From a virus, in the IMG/VR virus record IMGVR_UViG_3300027759_000050, positions 64,001-128,000 of that record: 64,000 bases of DNA. One strand, 5' to 3'. The translations under genes were made by a program, and so were the position numbers. The notes below the pieces were generated by a model, which was not told the DNA's origin, ran no database searches, and worked only from the letters and a program-made list of their open reading frames with translations. Numbering within the stretch: the first letter of the stretch is position 1; each line of letters starts with the position of its first letter. This document shows positions 19,361 to 44,540 of the stretch, piece by piece.

Positions 19361-20110
19361 TTATGCCGCTTTGAGCATAATTGAAGGGTATTTTACGAAA
19401 CCAGAGGTATCTTTTTTCGCTTTACCTTTTGCATAGAGACCGACCACAGAGTTTGCAGGGTCCAGAAAACGCAGGTCCGATTCATCGCCGTTAAATACAG
19501 GCATAAATTTATAGGTTTCAGGCATTGCTGAACCTTTTTTGATACCGAATACCACAGCAATATTATAACCTTGGGTCATCGCCGACATTACATCAGCATC
19601 ATTACCATCAGCAGCAGAAAATGTCAGGTGATAATTAGCAATATTATTTACTTTACGACCTAGCACCTTGGTGTAGTCATAGAATTGGACATTAGGAAAT
19701 GCCGCGAAAATATTGATATATGTCACACCGTCTACCTCGACAGTATATTTTTCCCATGATATATCAGAGGTACCATTGAGGCGGAACACAGGAACCAGAC
19801 CTTGTTTCGCTGCCTGCTTGATTGCTAATTTAATATCAGCGACCAACCACTCAAAGAAACCAGCACGCTCTTCGTAGAAAAACACCGTTTTGCGAATCCG
19901 TGCCTTTTGAATAACATTGGTATTTTCACCTTTTTTGAACATACCGCCGCGACCGGCAGTATTCAAGCAGGCAGCAATACAACCTGCCGTTGCTTTGGGG
20001 CAAGTATTATGTCCTGATAATGTAGCAGGAGCAAGGTGCAGAATATAGGTCATATAACCTTGAGTCATACCCTTGAGCGTTTTGGGATTACCGACTGATA
20101 ATAATTTCAT
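19361..20110 (-). CDS. GP88-like (radical-SAM-related Cys motif) protein
   Basis: CP.AT.GC...CL..AGRG, RLNGTSDI.W, QFYDYTK, GD.SDLRF.D. Confidence 0.75.
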   Translation of the reverse strand: MKLLSVGNPKTLKGMTQGYMTYILHLAPATLSGHNTCPKATAGCIAACLNTAGRGGMFKKGENTNVIQKARIRKTVFFYEERAGFFEWLVADIKLAIKQAAKQGLVPVFRLNGTSDISWEKYTVEVDGVTYINIFAAFPNVQFYDYTKVLGRKVNNIANYHLTFSAADGNDADVMSAMTQGYNIAVVFGIKKGSAMPETYKFMPVFNGDESDLRFLDPANSVVGLYAKGKAKKDTSGFVKYPSIMLKAA

Positions 20111-26079: not shown

Positions 26080-26976
26080 ACCATGTCCATAAAAAGTCTA
26101 CTACGAGCTTTCCGGCTAATCTGTGAATCTATGATTTCAGCTGACCGTTGCATCATAGCACAAGCCATCATTAGAAGTTCTTCTCGGCTATCACACATCA
26201 AAATTTGTTGTTCTACAGGAAACATTAGTTCATGCATCCTAATACGAACGGAATCTTTTTCATCTTCTGTCATTTCTTTTTCCTCTTAGGTGGAGGTTCA
26301 ATAGTCTCCTGAAACCTTGCAACCCATTCTTCGTGGTCTTTGTTGTTTTTATTGAATGTCACTTCATCAATCTCAACATCATTCCAGAAGTGCCTGTAAC
26401 CTTCGGTACTCAGGACTTCTACGACAAACGGTTCAGGCTTCTTGCTTCTGGTCGCCATTGTACATCCTCACACATTCACGGAGCCTCAGTTCTTTCTTAA
26501 TGAAAAAGGCTTTATCGTCATACTCCATGTGTTTGCTTTTGTGTTCAATAGACAATCCAGTATAATATTGAAAGTTGGCTTTCAGGGCCGCATCGGACAA
26601 CCGTTCAGTGGGTTCAGTAATCATATAAAGTTTTTCCATAATAAATTCATTTAACCTGTTTCAAGATTTGTACCATGTCCGAAGGAACAAGGAATGCTCG
26701 AGCTAGATAATCGGTGCCACCTATTATTTTATCTTCCCTTTTTGTAAACAAAACATGTTTAGACCGTAACAATTCTTCAGCAATCATATGACATAAATTT
26801 TTCTTAATCCAAGCTTCTGAATCTCCAACGTCGAGGCTTAATTTTTGAAATTCTGTTATTTTAAAATTAGCCGTCAACATTTCACCTTTGATTACATGTT
26901 GAGTTTCTAGCAATGGGTCATTTATGTTTTTGTGAAAATCGTCCCAAGAATTTATATTCCAATTTGTTTTTGCCAT
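26076..26976 (-). other. Four small hypothetical genes (26076-26273, 26270-26458, 26433-26639, 26647-26976)
   Basis: Coupled ORFs. Confidence 0.6.
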
Positions 26977-39643: not shown

Positions 39644-40283
39644 TTGTATACTCCATAATCATTGGGAAAATTGGTTCAATTGCGGCCGCACATGCAAGAG
39701 CTATTTCTTGGTGTTCTTTCTGTGTTCCGTTTGCGCTTCGGAGTTGTATATAGTGGACCCATGACCTAAGGGTTCCGTTCATATACATGCGTGATTTTGT
39801 CATGCCTTCCGGTAAAATTGCACGAGCCTGTTCCTTTGCAATACCGTTGTCGAGGGCCCATTTGTATGTTTTTTGCACTTGTTCTAAAAGTTTATTTTGT
39901 TGAATTTGCCACATATCATCCAGTGTGAAGTCTGTACTAGGCAAACTATTTTGCCGATTTTTGGTATCTTGCAATCTTGCTTCACGCAATTCAAAACCAA
40001 GTTGTGATGCATCAGCATATCGTTGTGAAAACTCTTGGAATGAAAAAGAACGGTGACGCAAAATCTGCCTTGCAATGTCACGGGTTGTTTCAATCTCCAA
40101 ACACACCGAAACCACCTCCAACGGTGACCAGTGTTGATTGTTAATCAAGTATCTAACCAATTTCTCAGCAGTCTCTGAGTTGTTCTGGTTCGCTGGATTA
40201 GACACACGGGCCGCGTAGGCAACCTGGTCCATTAAACTTTTACCATCTACTCCCTGAGAGTATGAAATCAAATTTACATTCAT
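39636..40283 (-). CDS. thyX: Flavin-dependent thymidylate synthase
   Basis: H.SPLE, RHRSFSFQEFSQRY, KEQAR..LP. Confidence 0.95.
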   Translation of the reverse strand: MNVNLISYSQGVDGKSLMDQVAYAARVSNPANQNNSETAEKLVRYLINNQHWSPLEVVSVCLEIETTRDIARQILRHRSFSFQEFSQRYADASQLGFELREARLQDTKNRQNSLPSTDFTLDDMWQIQQNKLLEQVQKTYKWALDNGIAKEQARAILPEGMTKSRMYMNGTLRSWVHYIQLRSANGTQKEHQEIALACAAAIEPIFPMIMEYTNE

Positions 40284-41281
40284 ATTTTTTTCCAATTCAC
40301 AAATTCCATTTTAGCCCTAAGATTCACAAAGGTGTGTTTCTCCATTATATCATGTAATTCTTCAATGTCAAATCCAGTTAATACCATATCATTAATGTCT
40401 TTGTCTGTTATGATTCCTGGCCAGACAACGACATTGAAATGGTTATCGACTGCATGTTCCATCAATTTTACGATTTCTTTATTCCTAGGTTCATTGTCGA
40501 AAACTAGTACAATTTTTGATTTGTCCAAATACTCTGCGGCCGATTCCAGTGACGAACTGGCGACAGCTACAGAATTTTTAATAAACATTGAATCGATTGG
40601 TCCTTCAAAGACATATATTGGTTTGTCTTCGTTTACACGGTTGATACCAAACATGCGTGGAACATCGTCCATGAGTTTGATTGTGATGTAACGAATCTTT
40701 GACTGTCCAAGTGCTCGGCCTTGAAATCCAGTCAGGTTCCCTTCTTTATCATAGAAAGGGATGATTAGGCGTTTGTCGCCTTCCATAATATCTTTTTCAA
40801 CTTCAAACGAATCCACAAAAGCCTTGAAGTCATCCGAATAATATAACTGCGAATACATATTTCTTGGTATCATTCTACCCATAACATATTTCTTAGCATA
40901 GTGTTCATCTGGCAACGATTCAATTGTCGGCAAGTCCAATTTCTTGGAAAATACAGGTTTGACCTTCAGTTCTGAAAACTCAGGTTCAGGCGAATTGGTA
41001 TTTGCAGAGTTTTTATACCGTTCCATCTGGTATTCCTCAAGTAGATTAGGATCAACTTGTTTTAGGAAATTATAGAACGATGTGGATACACCACAATTGT
41101 GACACATATAGAAGTAGTCATTCTTCTTGCGATAGACATAACCACGGCATTTGCTTTTGTTTTTCTGTGAGTCTCCACAGAGAGGACACCGAAAATTATA
41201 GAGGTCATCTTTCTTCTTGGAGAACTTCTGTAATTTGGGTGATAGTTGTAATAGAAAATTTCTGTCAATGAAGACGCTCAT
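40280..41281 (-). CDS. 61: DNA primase (gp61)
   Basis: FRCPLCGDS, CHNCG, QGR, EGPIDS, FDNEPRN, KDINDM. Confidence 0.95.
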   Translation of the reverse strand: MSVFIDRNFLLQLSPKLQKFSKKKDDLYNFRCPLCGDSQKNKSKCRGYVYRKKNDYFYMCHNCGVSTSFYNFLKQVDPNLLEEYQMERYKNSANTNSPEPEFSELKVKPVFSKKLDLPTIESLPDEHYAKKYVMGRMIPRNMYSQLYYSDDFKAFVDSFEVEKDIMEGDKRLIIPFYDKEGNLTGFQGRALGQSKIRYITIKLMDDVPRMFGINRVNEDKPIYVFEGPIDSMFIKNSVAVASSSLESAAEYLDKSKIVLVFDNEPRNKEIVKLMEHAVDNHFNVVVWPGIITDKDINDMVLTGFDIEELHDIMEKHTFVNLRAKMEFVNWKKI

Positions 41282-41300: not shown

Positions 41301-41726
41301 TTACTTTAAATTTCCTAGTAGTATATCAGGTCCTACATGAGAAAGCAACCATGTAACGACAATTATGCCACCAACAATCATCCACTTCCAATCTAGAAGT
41401 TGTTGGAGCTTTTCTTTTTCCTTGGCATTGTGAGCTTGCATTTCTGCTCGAAGGCCTTTAATTTCATCTAATAAAGTTTTTTCGGTATGTTGAACTTTAT
41501 CTAAAACTGTATCAATACGTCCATGTATCTCTTTAATGTCCATATCGGTCTCCACGCGCCTTTTATCAATATCATCATAGACCTTAGCTATGTGGCGGTC
41601 ATGTTGATCCACCAATTTTTCTATTACTTGGTCCATTTTGTTACAGAGTGTACAAATAGTTGTGACTTGCGTCTTTAAAATGCCCACATCTACTTGGACA
41701 TTCCTTAAATCGTCTGGTGTTGCCAT
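41301..41726 (-). CDS. Coiled-coil protein with C-terminal TM
   Basis: WKWMIVGG then TM; between lysis genes and primase. Confidence 0.7.
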   Translation of the reverse strand: MATPDDLRNVQVDVGILKTQVTTICTLCNKMDQVIEKLVDQHDRHIAKVYDDIDKRRVETDMDIKEIHGRIDTVLDKVQHTEKTLLDEIKGLRAEMQAHNAKEKEKLQQLLDWKWMIVGGIIVVTWLLSHVGPDILLGNLK

Positions 41727-41926
41727 TATTTTTTCTTTTTCTCTGGAACTTTAGTGCCATCCAATTTCTTATGAACTTTGATTTTTTTGCAAACACTTTT
41801 GATTTTTCCTTGAGCATTTTTTACTGTTCTGCAAACTTCTTTGGTTGCAGCCATTGTTGGTGTTACTGTTATAAGCAAGAAACATGCAAGGAAAAATAAA
41901 CTGACATAGTGTTTAATATTTTTCAT
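41726..41926 (-). CDS. Small secreted basic protein with two Cys
   Basis: Signal peptide; EVC...VCKKIKVHKK. Confidence 0.65.
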   Translation of the reverse strand: MKNIKHYVSLFFLACFLLITVTPTMAATKEVCRTVKNAQGKIKSVCKKIKVHKKLDGTKVPEKKKK

Positions 41927-41932
41927 AGGACC

Positions 41933-42319
41933 TCAAAGCATTGGTTGACTGGATTCAGGAACTGGACTTTTACGACCAACAACTGCTGTTGGTGTTTGAT
42001 TATTTATAATTGGTTGATTGTTAGGTGTTGGTGGTACAGGCGGAGCAACATAATTTGTTCCGCTTATTTTTTCCTGTGTTCTACCAAAAGCTGCAACACC
42101 TAATACAGCACCCATAGCGAGATGAAACAAACCTGCGCCTTGAAGTGTTAATGGTTGCCATTGACTTGTAACTTGGCCATGACTAAATGCTTGTAATAGA
42201 CTCCAGAGAATTGGAAATATTACAAAGTCACAGGTACACACCAACATGTACATCCATCCCATGGCTGGACGCCATTTAGCGTTCATCCAATCTTCTTTTT
42301 TATGAGTGTGTCGAGTCAT
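41933..42319 (-). CDS. Holin (3TM, GTA-type)
   Basis: WRPAMGW, LG..A.GRT.EK. Confidence 0.75.
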   Translation of the reverse strand: MTRHTHKKEDWMNAKWRPAMGWMYMLVCTCDFVIFPILWSLLQAFSHGQVTSQWQPLTLQGAGLFHLAMGAVLGVAAFGRTQEKISGTNYVAPPVPPTPNNQPIINNQTPTAVVGRKSPVPESSQPML

Positions 42320-43057
42320 TTAAACCTTCGTGTCTTGTGGTTTTTTTACAGGTGCCTTTTTAGCAACTATTCTTTTAACAGGTTTTTTATCAAGTACTTC
42401 TTTGTGTTTGATAACCATTACTAGTAAAATTAAACTTAAATTTATAACAATAATCATTGTCCATGCTGCTGTCATATAGAACAGATATTCCGATTGCAAT
42501 CTGTTCACTACCATTACATAGAATTCATTTGTAGTGTCAACAATTTCTTTCTTGTATTTTTTGTAATCATCTCCAAACATCAACATCTGTGCTTCTGTGT
42601 AGTGATGCATCATTATGTCAAAATTTGGTTCGGGTTTACCTTTGTCAATCCATGCAAACGCTTCAACCTCAAGTTTAGCAAGATTATTGCTTAATTGTTC
42701 CGCTTTCAATAACTTATCCAATTCAGTCTGTGAGAACGGTACTTCATTTACTCTGACTTTGAATGATTTTGTGATTCCGTTGTCATCTGCTAGTTCTCCT
42801 TTGCGAATTTTGAGGACATTGTTAAACTCTGTTCTCCATTGTTCGTTCTTGGTTGTTACGAAAAATCTAGCATAATTAGTTAAATCGTCTGATGATTTAG
42901 CCATAACATGACTAAGTGAAGCTGCATGGTTAAGAGTAGTCAGTTGCGTTTCAGCACTTTTGAAACAACTAAGAACAACCAAACTGCTTATGAATATAAC
43001 CCCCGCAATAACATATGGAGTTCTTTTAAATTCTAAAATTTCATCTAATATTTTCAT
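42320..43057 (-). CDS. 2-TM protein with MCP/histidine-kinase-type periplasmic sensor domain, no signalling domain
   Basis: SSDDLT..AR.+V.T, IR.G, E...L.KA...SN.LA.LE..AF, FG..Y...K..I; basic tail of about 30 aa only. Confidence 0.7.
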   Translation of the reverse strand: MKILDEILEFKRTPYVIAGVIFISSLVVLSCFKSAETQLTTLNHAASLSHVMAKSSDDLTNYARFFVTTKNEQWRTEFNNVLKIRKGELADDNGITKSFKVRVNEVPFSQTELDKLLKAEQLSNNLAKLEVEAFAWIDKGKPEPNFDIMMHHYTEAQMLMFGDDYKKYKKEIVDTTNEFYVMVVNRLQSEYLFYMTAAWTMIIVINLSLILLVMVIKHKEVLDKKPVKRIVAKKAPVKKPQDTKV

Positions 43058-43231
43058 GTTAATGTCTTCATTATTAAAGATAGTATCTGTTTGACTTCTG
43101 CTTGATAATTGGTAAGAATAACCATACCCACACCTAGCAACGCGGTTGGGAAACTTTTTGTAGCCGGCGATGGTGCCGGTGCTGGTTCAACTACTTTTCG
43201 TCTAGTAGTAACCTTTTTTGAAACCATTTTA

Positions 43232-43837
43232 TTAACCTAATACATGCAGAGCATGTTCATAGTGTTTAATTCTATCTTCTAGACCAATAGTTCCTCCATT
43301 GATTCTTTTTGTCAGTGTAACAATGTCACCTTTATCTGCCCATTGGTTTAAGTTATTGCTTTCCCAGAACCAGCATGCTGATTGTACTGCACCTTCAAAT
43401 GTACCAAGATACTCTGGCAATTCTTCAATATTCATTTCAAGACTATCAGCAAAATTCTGATAGTTATCTTTACCTGTCAACTGAATTAGTCCACGGCCAC
43501 AGTAACGATAACCATCACCAGATTCTTCAGGACCATTACCCATTCTATTTGCGTATACACGATTTGCAATAGCTTCTTGTTTACCTGCAAATTGTTGAGC
43601 TGATGATTCTGTGAAATATTTTGGAAATACTTTGCAAAGTGTTGCAGCTCTATAATTTAGATTCTCTTTTAACGCAGTGAAACCACCAGACTCATGTGAG
43701 CATTGAGCAATAAATGCTGCGATCCGATGTGGTGTATTAATCTCATAGTCAGGCAATAGTTGCTCTAATGCTTCATGCCATTGTTGAACATATTGATTGT
43801 TTGGAAGAAGTTGTTGTAGTTGTTCTAGTGTAATCAT
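43232..43837 (-). CDS. GH19 (chitinase-like) endolysin
   Basis: AAFIAQ..HESGGF..L.ENLNY, GRGLIQLTG..NY, T+RINGG. Confidence 0.92.
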   Translation of the reverse strand: MITLEQLQQLLPNNQYVQQWHEALEQLLPDYEINTPHRIAAFIAQCSHESGGFTALKENLNYRAATLCKVFPKYFTESSAQQFAGKQEAIANRVYANRMGNGPEESGDGYRYCGRGLIQLTGKDNYQNFADSLEMNIEELPEYLGTFEGAVQSACWFWESNNLNQWADKGDIVTLTKRINGGTIGLEDRIKHYEHALHVLG

Positions 43838-44118
43838 TGTAACTCCTCAAATATTTTCTTTTGTTTATTAAACCATTCAATCAATCCACTATTATTAGCA
43901 GAACAATCTTTGTATTGTTTGTAGTTTTCTGTTATTGTTTTTGAAATGTCACTTAGTTTTGATTCATCTGGTATTTTCTTCAACGGAGGACATTGTACAT
44001 TCAGTTCTTCCGGAATAGAAGGAAAATTAACTGTTACAGGAACAGTTGTTGAGCATCCTGTAATAAGAATCAGTATTGTGATAAAAATATAAATGGTGAA
44101 TAATCTAACTAAGTTCAT
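43834..44118 (-). CDS. o-spanin (Rz1-like lipoprotein)
   Basis: ITGC lipobox, Pro-rich, NY..Y..C. Confidence 0.8.
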   Translation of the reverse strand: MNLVRLFTIYIFITILILITGCSTTVPVTVNFPSIPEELNVQCPPLKKIPDESKLSDISKTITENYKQYKDCSANNSGLIEWFNKQKKIFEELQ

Positions 44119-44540
44119 TCTGCGGCCTTATTCAAAGATTCAATGAATTCTTTAGGCATTTCACAAGGTCCACCTGGCAGAAATTTGGTATCATATTTGA
44201 CAACTTCTTTGTCAATGTACTTTATAATTTCTGCACCTTTTTGTTTGATGAATTGTTTTTGATAAACAACTTTCTCAACAACTTTGACTGTCTCTATTGC
44301 AGATTTATTTTCAGCTACAACAACTTTAGCTTCCAATTCGGCGACACGTTCTTTCCATTTTTTGTTTTCAGAAATGCCACCAAACATATACACAGAAAAC
44401 AATAAAACAACCACACAAACAACTTGTATGAGTGTCTTATGCATTGGTGCAAAAATGGATAAGATTAATCCAAATAGACTCAGAAAGAATGGAACATAAA
44501 AAACCCAATCAGGTAAGAAATCCAATAACCACATAAACAT
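44115..44540 (-). CDS. i-spanin (Rz-like)
   Basis: N-terminal TMs, coiled coil, C-terminal C.+P. Confidence 0.75.
   Translation of the reverse strand: MFMWLLDFLPDWVFYVPFFLSLFGLILSIFAPMHKTLIQVVCVVVLLFSVYMFGGISENKKWKERVAELEAKVVVAENKSAIETVKVVEKVVYQKQFIKQKGAEIIKYIDKEVVKYDTKFLPGGPCEMPKEFIESLNKAAE

Follow-up and report, generated by a model that had tools for sequence, protein, structure and literature searches.

A 64,000-nucleotide stretch of an uncultured virus genome (IMG/VR record IMGVR_UViG_3300027759_000050, hereafter the window) carries on its minus strand two overlapping genes, s57 (43054-43227) and sensor245 (42320-43057), which together make up a two-gene unit that is conserved and translationally coupled in uncultured T4-like phages. 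The topology, fold, and sequence of the sensor245 product place it in the four-helix-bundle sensor class, and the protein is neither a chemoreceptor nor a kinase. In the window, the pair is located between the genes for an endolysin and a predicted holin. We propose, with a probability of about 35%, that s57 and sensor245 form a two-protein periplasm-sensing unit that modulates lysis timing.

The source record is a complete virus genome of 160,679 bp with direct terminal repeats, and the window corresponds to its bases 64001-128000. The phage is a distant T4-like phage, with a gp61 primase that is ~45% identical to cyanomyovirus primases. No close cultured relative of this phage was found.

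Sensor245 has the layout of a membrane sensor without an output domain

The 245-residue sensor245 protein begins with a first transmembrane (TM) segment, TM1, at amino acids 14-32 (42962-43018), which has a hydropathy of 2.22 over 19 residues and is helical in the AlphaFold 2 (AF2) model. It is followed by a periplasmic helical sensor domain at amino acids 33-197 (42467-42961), which was modeled with a predicted local distance difference test (pLDDT) score of 82-92 and has its fold and invariant columns in common with cellular sensors. The second segment, TM2, spans amino acids 198-216 (42410-42466) and contains W199 and N206, two residues that do not vary within the phage family. The remaining cytoplasmic tail at amino acids 217-245 (42323-42409) is rich in Lys and Pro, disordered (pLDDT <50), variable in length and sequence, and without a Pfam match. 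All four segments are encoded on the minus strand. The periplasmic domain comprises ~165 residues and is all-helical, with the helices of the AF2 model at residues 13-69, 72-85, 110-140, and 146-223. Sensor245 therefore has the two TM segments flanking an all-helical extracytoplasmic domain of ~130-170 residues that define this sensor class. A full methyl-accepting chemotaxis protein (MCP) or sensor histidine kinase it is not, because only ~28 disordered residues follow TM2, with no HAMP and no output domain. The same truncation after TM2 is common to all phage relatives. The first-pass annotation had described a TM-sensor-TM protein with a short basic tail and neither HAMP nor output domain, and this is the layout that we recovered.

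Neither sensor245 nor s57 belongs to a family in Pfam, PHROGs, NCBIfam, or PADLOC. The periplasmic domain carries the family motif SSDDLTNYARxxVTT...W...IRxG...E...SNNL..E..AF...Y. The named sensor families 4HB_MCP_1 (PF12729), TarH (PF02203), CHASE3 (PF05227), and PilJ (PF13675) gave no match to sensor245 at E values up to 1. When 36 homologues were scanned at the same threshold, these named families were not among the 25 most-matched ones, and DUF6377 was matched weakly in 9 of 37 proteins. CHASE3 (0.94) and PilJ (0.93) resemble sensor245 solely as language-model look-alikes. The domain thus belongs to an unnamed four-helix-bundle-type sensor family without a solved sequence relative. Neither Pfam nor NCBIfam names this sensor-domain family, and no structure of it has been solved.

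Sensor245 is homologous to the input regions of chemoreceptors and histidine kinases

A profile built from 24 phage homologues was searched against 1.84 billion representatives and produced 1,273 matches, cellular sensors included. The non-phage matches were long proteins that aligned over their N-terminal TM-sensor-TM region, with E values of 2.4e-21 to 1e-11. Ten of these long proteins were scanned for domains; MCPsignal was present in five and HisKA/HATPase_c in five, and some also contained PAS and receiver domains. The sequence homology of sensor245 is therefore to the input region of proteins with MCPsignal or HisKA and HATPase_c outputs.

The residues that the phage and cellular proteins have in common were determined from a signature alignment of the phage protein with 36 cellular-type homologues, in which identities ranged from 19% to 28%. 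The common signature is SSDDLT.Y.R.YV.TGD..W, IRNG, E112, SN.L..E..AF, Y165, and R186. Positions L59, G87, E112, S123, L126, E130, and Y165 are invariant across phage and cellular sensors, and S55, S56, T60, R64, T69, R85, G94, A133, I172, F179, and R186 are conserved at a level of at least 90%. The phage family retains every signature position of the cellular sensors, and the polar signature residues are conserved in sensor245 itself. Judged from these alignments, the sensor resemblance of sensor245 is true homology and not chance. Since sensor245 keeps all residues that are conserved in cellular sensors, it probably still binds whatever its domain family binds. The resemblance to MCP and histidine kinase sensors claimed in the first-pass annotation is thus borne out, both by the E values (in the range of 1e-21 to 1e-11) and by the invariant motifs in common.

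The AF2 model of sensor245 (pLDDT 80.5) was compared with 48,161 PDB representatives in an exhaustive VIA-align search. Ranks 1-12 were all sensor domains of kinases or chemoreceptors, with Z scores of 14.3-10.9 and root-mean-square deviations of 2.1-3.7 over 119-183 residues; the sensor fold expected from the first-pass annotation was therefore found. The top-ranked domains include LytS-N and the solved periplasmic four-helix-bundle sensors HK9 (3va9), Adeh_2942 (4k0d), MCP2201 (9kup), Vc1313 (8bsa), PcaY (6s18), Tsr (2d4u), TorS (3o1h), McpN (6gcv), and NarQ (5iji). In the ESM Atlas, template modeling scores of 0.76-0.82 were obtained to the N-termini of MCP, HAMP, cyclase, and HisKA proteins. 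Foldseek against the PDB returned weak rows only (E values of at least 0.03), which were mixed with BAR domains and other long helices, and PDB sequence searches with the phage profile and a wider profile gave nothing meaningful.

Sensor245 therefore resembles MCP and kinase sensors in its TM-bundle-TM topology, in its fold, and in its sequence homology to the N-termini of uncharacterized MCPs and kinases. It differs from them in lacking HAMP, MCPsignal, HisKA, or any other output domain, with the chain ending 28 residues past TM2, and in being encoded by a phage and tied to the gene of a 57-residue partner.

s57 is the constant partner of sensor245

Gene pairing was surveyed in 45 loci from IMG/VR and, for the most distant family members, in short metagenome contigs. 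In every locus with upstream sequence, an s57 gene of 53-64 codons is located immediately upstream of the sensor gene, usually with a 4-nt overlap. This pairing holds even in loci where the sensor is only 31-42% identical to sensor245. The s57 protein has a basic N-terminus, a Pro-rich linker, and a moderately hydrophobic stretch of 15 residues, and carries the invariant motif G...LTNYQ.E.KQ. The ratio of nonsynonymous to synonymous substitution rates (dN/dS) of s57 is 0.07-0.24. The first-pass annotation had listed s57 as a small TM open reading frame (ORF); the ORF stands, whereas its TM character is uncertain because s57 contains no 19-residue TM segment. A complex prediction for sensor245 and s57 scored 0.00, a value that counts neither for nor against their interaction.

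The invariant partner of sensor245 is s57 and not the holin, which had been the partner proposed from the sequence at first. A related genome (G002) keeps the holin cassette without the sensor.

The family is abundant and under purifying selection

At E values up to 1e-3, 560 clusters of sensor245 homologues were obtained at 90% identity, many of them on phage contigs of 100-345 kb. Full-length relatives with identities down to 31% keep the same architecture. The dN/dS of sensor245 against seven relatives is 0.07-0.12, and the periplasmic domain is highly conserved, with a mean column identity of 81%. Sensor245 is therefore a maintained gene under strong purifying selection and not a decaying capture; the sporadic, decaying insert that would have spoken against the first-pass annotation is not what these 560 clusters, dN/dS values, and constant architecture describe. 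That annotation had also called the sensor captured. This holds in a deep sense only: any capture must be ancient, because the nearest cellular sensors, found in scattered phyla (Spirochaetaceae, Bacteroidota), are only 21-28% identical. A scan of 185,579 GTDB species genomes with phage-type patterns detected no relative.

The pair is part of a tightly packed lysis cassette

A single unbroken gene string on the minus strand of the window comprises i-spanin, o-spanin, GH19 endolysin, s57, sensor245, holin128, sec66, cc141, and primase. The i-spanin (44115-44540) matches phrog_4952 (3.7e-10) and, weakly, the Rz-like phrog_2536 and phrog_1327, and has N-terminal TM segments followed by a coiled coil. 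The o-spanin lipoprotein (43834-44118) has a lipobox and matches PF23793 LysC/Rz1 (1.5e-5) and phrog_456 (5e-9). The GH19 endolysin (43232-43837; phrog_181, 8.6e-83; PF00182, 3e-7) contains no signal peptide, signal-anchor-release (SAR) sequence, TM segment, or hydrophobic segment. The s57 gene, without a family of its own and located 5' of the sensor gene in relatives as well, starts with an ATG 4 nt past the GH19 stop codon, and its own stop codon overlaps the start of sensor245 as ATGA. The ATG of holin128 (41933-42319) directly follows the TAA of sensor245. Holin128 is a predicted two-TM holin and the sole match to PF11351 in the genome (9e-6, 26.6 bits with a cut-off of 24.8); it also matches phrog_3427 (1e-8). 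A genome scan for the T4 holin T family PF11031 gave no match, and the control likewise gave none. The string ends with sec66 (41726-41926), cc141 (41301-41726), which consists of a coiled coil and a C-terminal TM anchor and has a weak match to phrog_689 'holin' (2e-4), and the gp61 primase homologue (40280-41281). The gene order and the abutting holin were thus as first annotated, with all ORFs present and tightly packed on the minus strand, and the small secreted protein with two Cys residues was also found where it had been claimed, with a signal-like segment at residues 8-26.

The window shows no enrichment of the T4 late-promoter motif TATAAATA (6 observed versus 4.95 expected). Scans of the cassette for sigma-70-like promoters and terminators remained at background level and gave no sign of separate regulation. 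s57 and sensor245 are predicted to be co-transcribed here with the endolysin and the holin, all in a single tightly packed string.

Two further members of the string were noted in relatives. The sec66 product is a signal peptide followed by a very basic 40-residue peptide with two Cys residues, and it is retained after the holin in relatives. In all related cassettes, the cc141 gene is retained at its place between sec66 and primase, and its product may be a so far unrecognized lysis component.

Lysis genes recur near the pair in different arrangements

Lysis genes were found at most 4 kb from the pair in 12 of the 45 viral loci; of four additional metagenome contigs, three (L053, L055, and L057) also had them. 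A site chosen at random in a genome of 160 kb would, by our own estimate, give ~6%. The lysis-adjacent loci show at least five different gene orders. The pair is located between GH19 and the holin in the window, L012, and L053. It follows GH19 and precedes sec66 and a cc-type gene, with no holin128, in L055; it is inserted between the spanins and a small ORF followed by the holin in L057; and it stands between the spanins and DUF4337, with GH19 and the holin further on, in L006-L010. In L020, it is flanked by the spanins and a cc-type gene, and in L039 (52% sensor identity) by GH19 and the gene of a different two-TM protein. In L030-L034, the pair is near a convergent GH19 gene.

The absence of holin128 was noted in two of these cassettes. 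In L055 (2712-4757), the pair after GH19 is followed by a sec66-like peptide, a cc-type protein, and primase, and in L020 (3249-5163), the pair after the spanins is followed by a cc-type protein. Either these fragments carry the holin at another position, or its function is taken over by a different protein.

The pair is thus present in or beside the lysis cassettes of several relatives but not of others: the G002 cassette has no pair, and in most loci the next gene is DUF4337. The T4 holin, antiholin, and endolysin genes are themselves unlinked, and a role in lysis is thus compatible with non-adjacency in some relatives.

The unit moves between accessory slots

Neighboring ORFs were clustered, and the genes downstream of the pair were counted in 41 loci. 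Besides the two most frequent families, which are weighed below, these were the gene of a small secreted protein with a CVRW motif (13/41), GH19 (9/41), a spanin (7/41), and holin128 (5/41). A recurrent trio 3' of the sensor gene was observed in L002-L038, consisting of DUF4337, a small secreted C-V-R-W-x-W-T protein, and a phrog_32327-like protein. This trio is an uncharacterized phage envelope module in its own right. No paper on the function of DUF4337 was found in our literature search.

The genome of the window is the reverse of G002, with the pair in the lysis cassette and a polymerase-adjacent slot that contains no s57, sensor, or DUF4337 gene. This polymerase-divergent slot (G000:C1 ~129,400-130,530, outside the window; L047:868-1992) encodes a 102-residue Pro-rich membrane protein and a 163-residue phrog_32327-like protein, and in relatives it additionally holds s57, the sensor, and DUF4337. 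It looks like the donor or the empty site of the relocated pair. In the tree of sensor proteins, the classes of arrangement are interleaved, and the protein from the window is closest (89%) to copies outside lysis cassettes. The s57-sensor unit is thus mobile and moves between accessory slots of these genomes.

Traces of recombination were also found between two cassettes of identical gene order. In the comparison of window positions 42310-43200 with L053, the s57-sensor DNA is 84-86% identical, whereas the flanks are 93-95% identical. Because the lower DNA identity of the module is accompanied by a low dN/dS, it is probably attributable to allele exchange rather than to fast protein evolution, which suggests that the s57-sensor block is a mosaic patch that arose by recombination.

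Comparison with known membrane regulators

In T4 lysis inhibition, the periplasmic antiholin RI binds the holin T, as described in PMC8385771 and PMC11413866. Sensor245 is similar to the RI/T system in that it comes from a T4-like phage and is a membrane or periplasmic protein in a position to sense the periplasm and, possibly, to delay lysis. It is different in its fold and in its anchoring by two TM segments, and holin128 has no periplasmic domain. No homology to RI or T was found for sensor245, which has no match among the lysis regulators of Pfam or PHROGs.

A bacterial operon (L059:1448-5177, cluster of P0156) encodes a STAS protein of 127 residues, a stand-alone 233-residue sensor of the same family, and a dCache_1-SpoIIE-HATPase_c_2 protein, with a 4-nt overlap between the sensor gene and the next gene. 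This sensor has in common with sensor245 the family, the motif, the output-less TM-sensor-TM form, and the overlap with a neighboring gene, which in L059 is the next membrane signaling gene. In contrast to the phage unit, the L059 sensor is bacterial, its neighbor is a partner-switching phosphatase, and the upstream gene is STAS rather than an s57-like gene. L059 shows a bacterial precedent for an output-less module that works in trans beside a membrane signaling protein. A second candidate, L061, where a 233-residue sensor precedes a HAMP-MCP ORF without a TM segment of its own, was not used as a precedent, as it looks like a frameshifted or split chemoreceptor.

Membrane regulators without enzymatic domains, which act through periplasmic or TM contacts, are known from SafA-PhoQ, MzrA-EnvZ, and YycH/YycI-WalK. 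The phage pair has no homology to SafA, MzrA, or YycH/YycI and differs from them in that the sensor-like protein itself is the orphan. The small envelope proteins Imm and Sp (spackle) of T4 offer a positional analogy only: in T4 (NC_000866, L063), sp and imm are located at 19,758-20,051 and 26,373-26,624, with sp three genes upstream of gene 61 and imm two genes from gene 43, and these are the two neighborhoods that hold the pair in the phages studied here. No sequence similarity to Imm or Sp was detected, and T4 imm is on the other side of gene 43. Our literature search found no paper on phage-encoded sensor modules of the chemoreceptor type.

Proposed function of the pair and alternative explanations

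Because sensor245 has no cytoplasmic domain, any signal must pass via TM1 and TM2. A periplasmic cue would then be transmitted only through these helices to a partner in the membrane, and the invariant TM2 residues W199 and N206 are candidates for this passage. The first partner would be s57, and the next one the membrane protein encoded downstream, which is the holin here and DUF4337 in most relatives. The pair would thus be an accessory regulator that senses the periplasm and acts on an event in the membrane, in this phage most likely the time at which the holin is triggered. Its role would be of the antiholin or lysis-inhibition type, analogous to that of T4 RI but built from a different fold. 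Any coupling to the holin would have to run through membrane helices, because the periplasmic loop of holin128 comprises only 18 residues. A more specific version of this proposal, in which the pair is a ligand-gated lysis switch of a virulent T4-like phage that reads a small molecule or the envelope state with a periplasmic domain of the chemoreceptor type and advances or delays holin firing via contacts between membrane helices, is put forward tentatively and is itself rather unlikely.

Several observations weigh against a role in lysis timing. The commonest downstream neighbor of the pair is not a holin; it is DUF4337 (PF14235, 3.5e-32), found in 25 of the 41 loci, followed by the C-terminally anchored phrog_32327-like protein in 24. 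In G002, which is 98% complete, the cassette comprises o-spanin, GH19, holin128, sec66, cc141, and primase; holin128 directly follows GH19, with no gene between them, where the insert with the pair is missing. The pair of G002 is located together with DUF4337 25 kb from this cassette and is divergent from the DNA polymerase gene, and in G001 the holin is 13 kb from the pair. Several of the lysis-adjacent gene orders share the slot upstream of the primase gene and are therefore not all independent; these arrangements may stem from one insertion into a variable region. Holin128 itself has almost no periplasmic part besides its short loop. As for the sensor fold, four-helix bundles occur widely and the arrangement of helices alone can give Z scores of ~13-14, so that the fold match needs the sequence homology for support. 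In addition, a tblastn search of 50,697 cultured phage genomes gave no match to the sensor gene.

The pair could instead belong to an inner-membrane and periplasmic module, often together with DUF4337, the small secreted Cys protein, and the C-terminally anchored helical protein, that detects or blocks components of incoming phages and serves superinfection exclusion or envelope protection in the manner of T4 Imm and Sp. Every recurrent neighbor of the pair is an envelope protein, and the unit occupies accessory slots beside the replication genes gp43 and gp61, where early genes are located, as are sp and imm in T4. The lower DNA identity of the module relative to its flanks also fits allele exchange as seen in conflict genes. 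On the other hand, there is no homology to Imm, Sp, or any exclusion family in PADLOC or PHROGs, and the PADLOC defense models matched neither sensor245 and s57 nor DUF4337 and the phrog_32327-like proteins. The strong conservation of the periplasmic domain is unlike typical arms-race surfaces, and the retained signature residues of cellular sensors speak for a ligand that is small and constant and against a variable phage protein. We consider an exclusion role doubtful.

Interference with host signaling is improbable. The output-less module would in this case act as a dominant negative by forming heterodimers with a chemoreceptor or kinase of the host that belongs to the same sensor family, or soak up its ligand, and rewire host behavior in the manner of SafA and MzrA. 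Four-helix-bundle sensors act as dimers, and the phage protein retains both the TM-sensor-TM unit and the signature residues. However, the distant and scattered cellular sensors include no host-like donor, the GTDB species genomes yielded no relative, and interference would explain neither the obligate s57 gene nor the neighborhood of lysis genes.

Still less probable is an autonomous second holin-antiholin system, in which s57 would be a small holin-like or pinholin-like effector, sensor245 its dedicated inhibitor, and the two together able to replace holin128. In L055 and L020, the pair does take the place of holin128 beside GH19 or the spanins, and s57 is a small protein with a basic end and a hydrophobic center. 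Its hydrophobic stretch is, however, too short for a 19-residue TM segment, and the GH19 endolysin, having no SAR sequence, needs large holes. Moreover, both contigs are fragments whose holin may be located elsewhere, and the cc141-like proteins of these cassettes could serve instead. Equally hard to sustain is the T4-style contact of the first-pass annotation, in which the periplasmic domain of the sensor would bind the adjacent holin as RI binds T (PMC8385771 and PMC11413866) and a bound ligand would release or block the holin: the two genes abut and the same order recurs in L012 and L053, but such contact is implausible with a two-TM holin that exposes 18 residues to the periplasm, the holin family occurs unlinked to the sensor in relatives, and L055 and L020 carry the pair with no holin128 in the cassette.

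Implications for the phage family

Phages adjust lysis timing to superinfection, as in T4, ICP1, and N4, and to peptide signals. To our knowledge, no phage carries a bacterial-type periplasmic ligand sensor for lysis timing. The family described here is abundant and strongly conserved, and it is a clear homologue of chemoreceptor and kinase inputs that has been stripped of its output and tied to a 57-residue partner. The analysis also flags an unnamed and structurally unsolved family of bacterial sensor domains, for which the small soluble domain of sensor245 (amino acids 33-197) is suited to ligand screening. If the pair controls lysis or exclusion, it would be an example of a sensor domain that signals purely within the membrane, and in the case of lysis, very common uncultured phages would provide a lysis module that responds to the environment. 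Should it act as a ligand-gated switch, its sensing principle for lysis timing would be different from that of T4 RI. In these phages, the s57-sensor245 pair may thus link lysis timing or envelope defense to a periplasmic cue.

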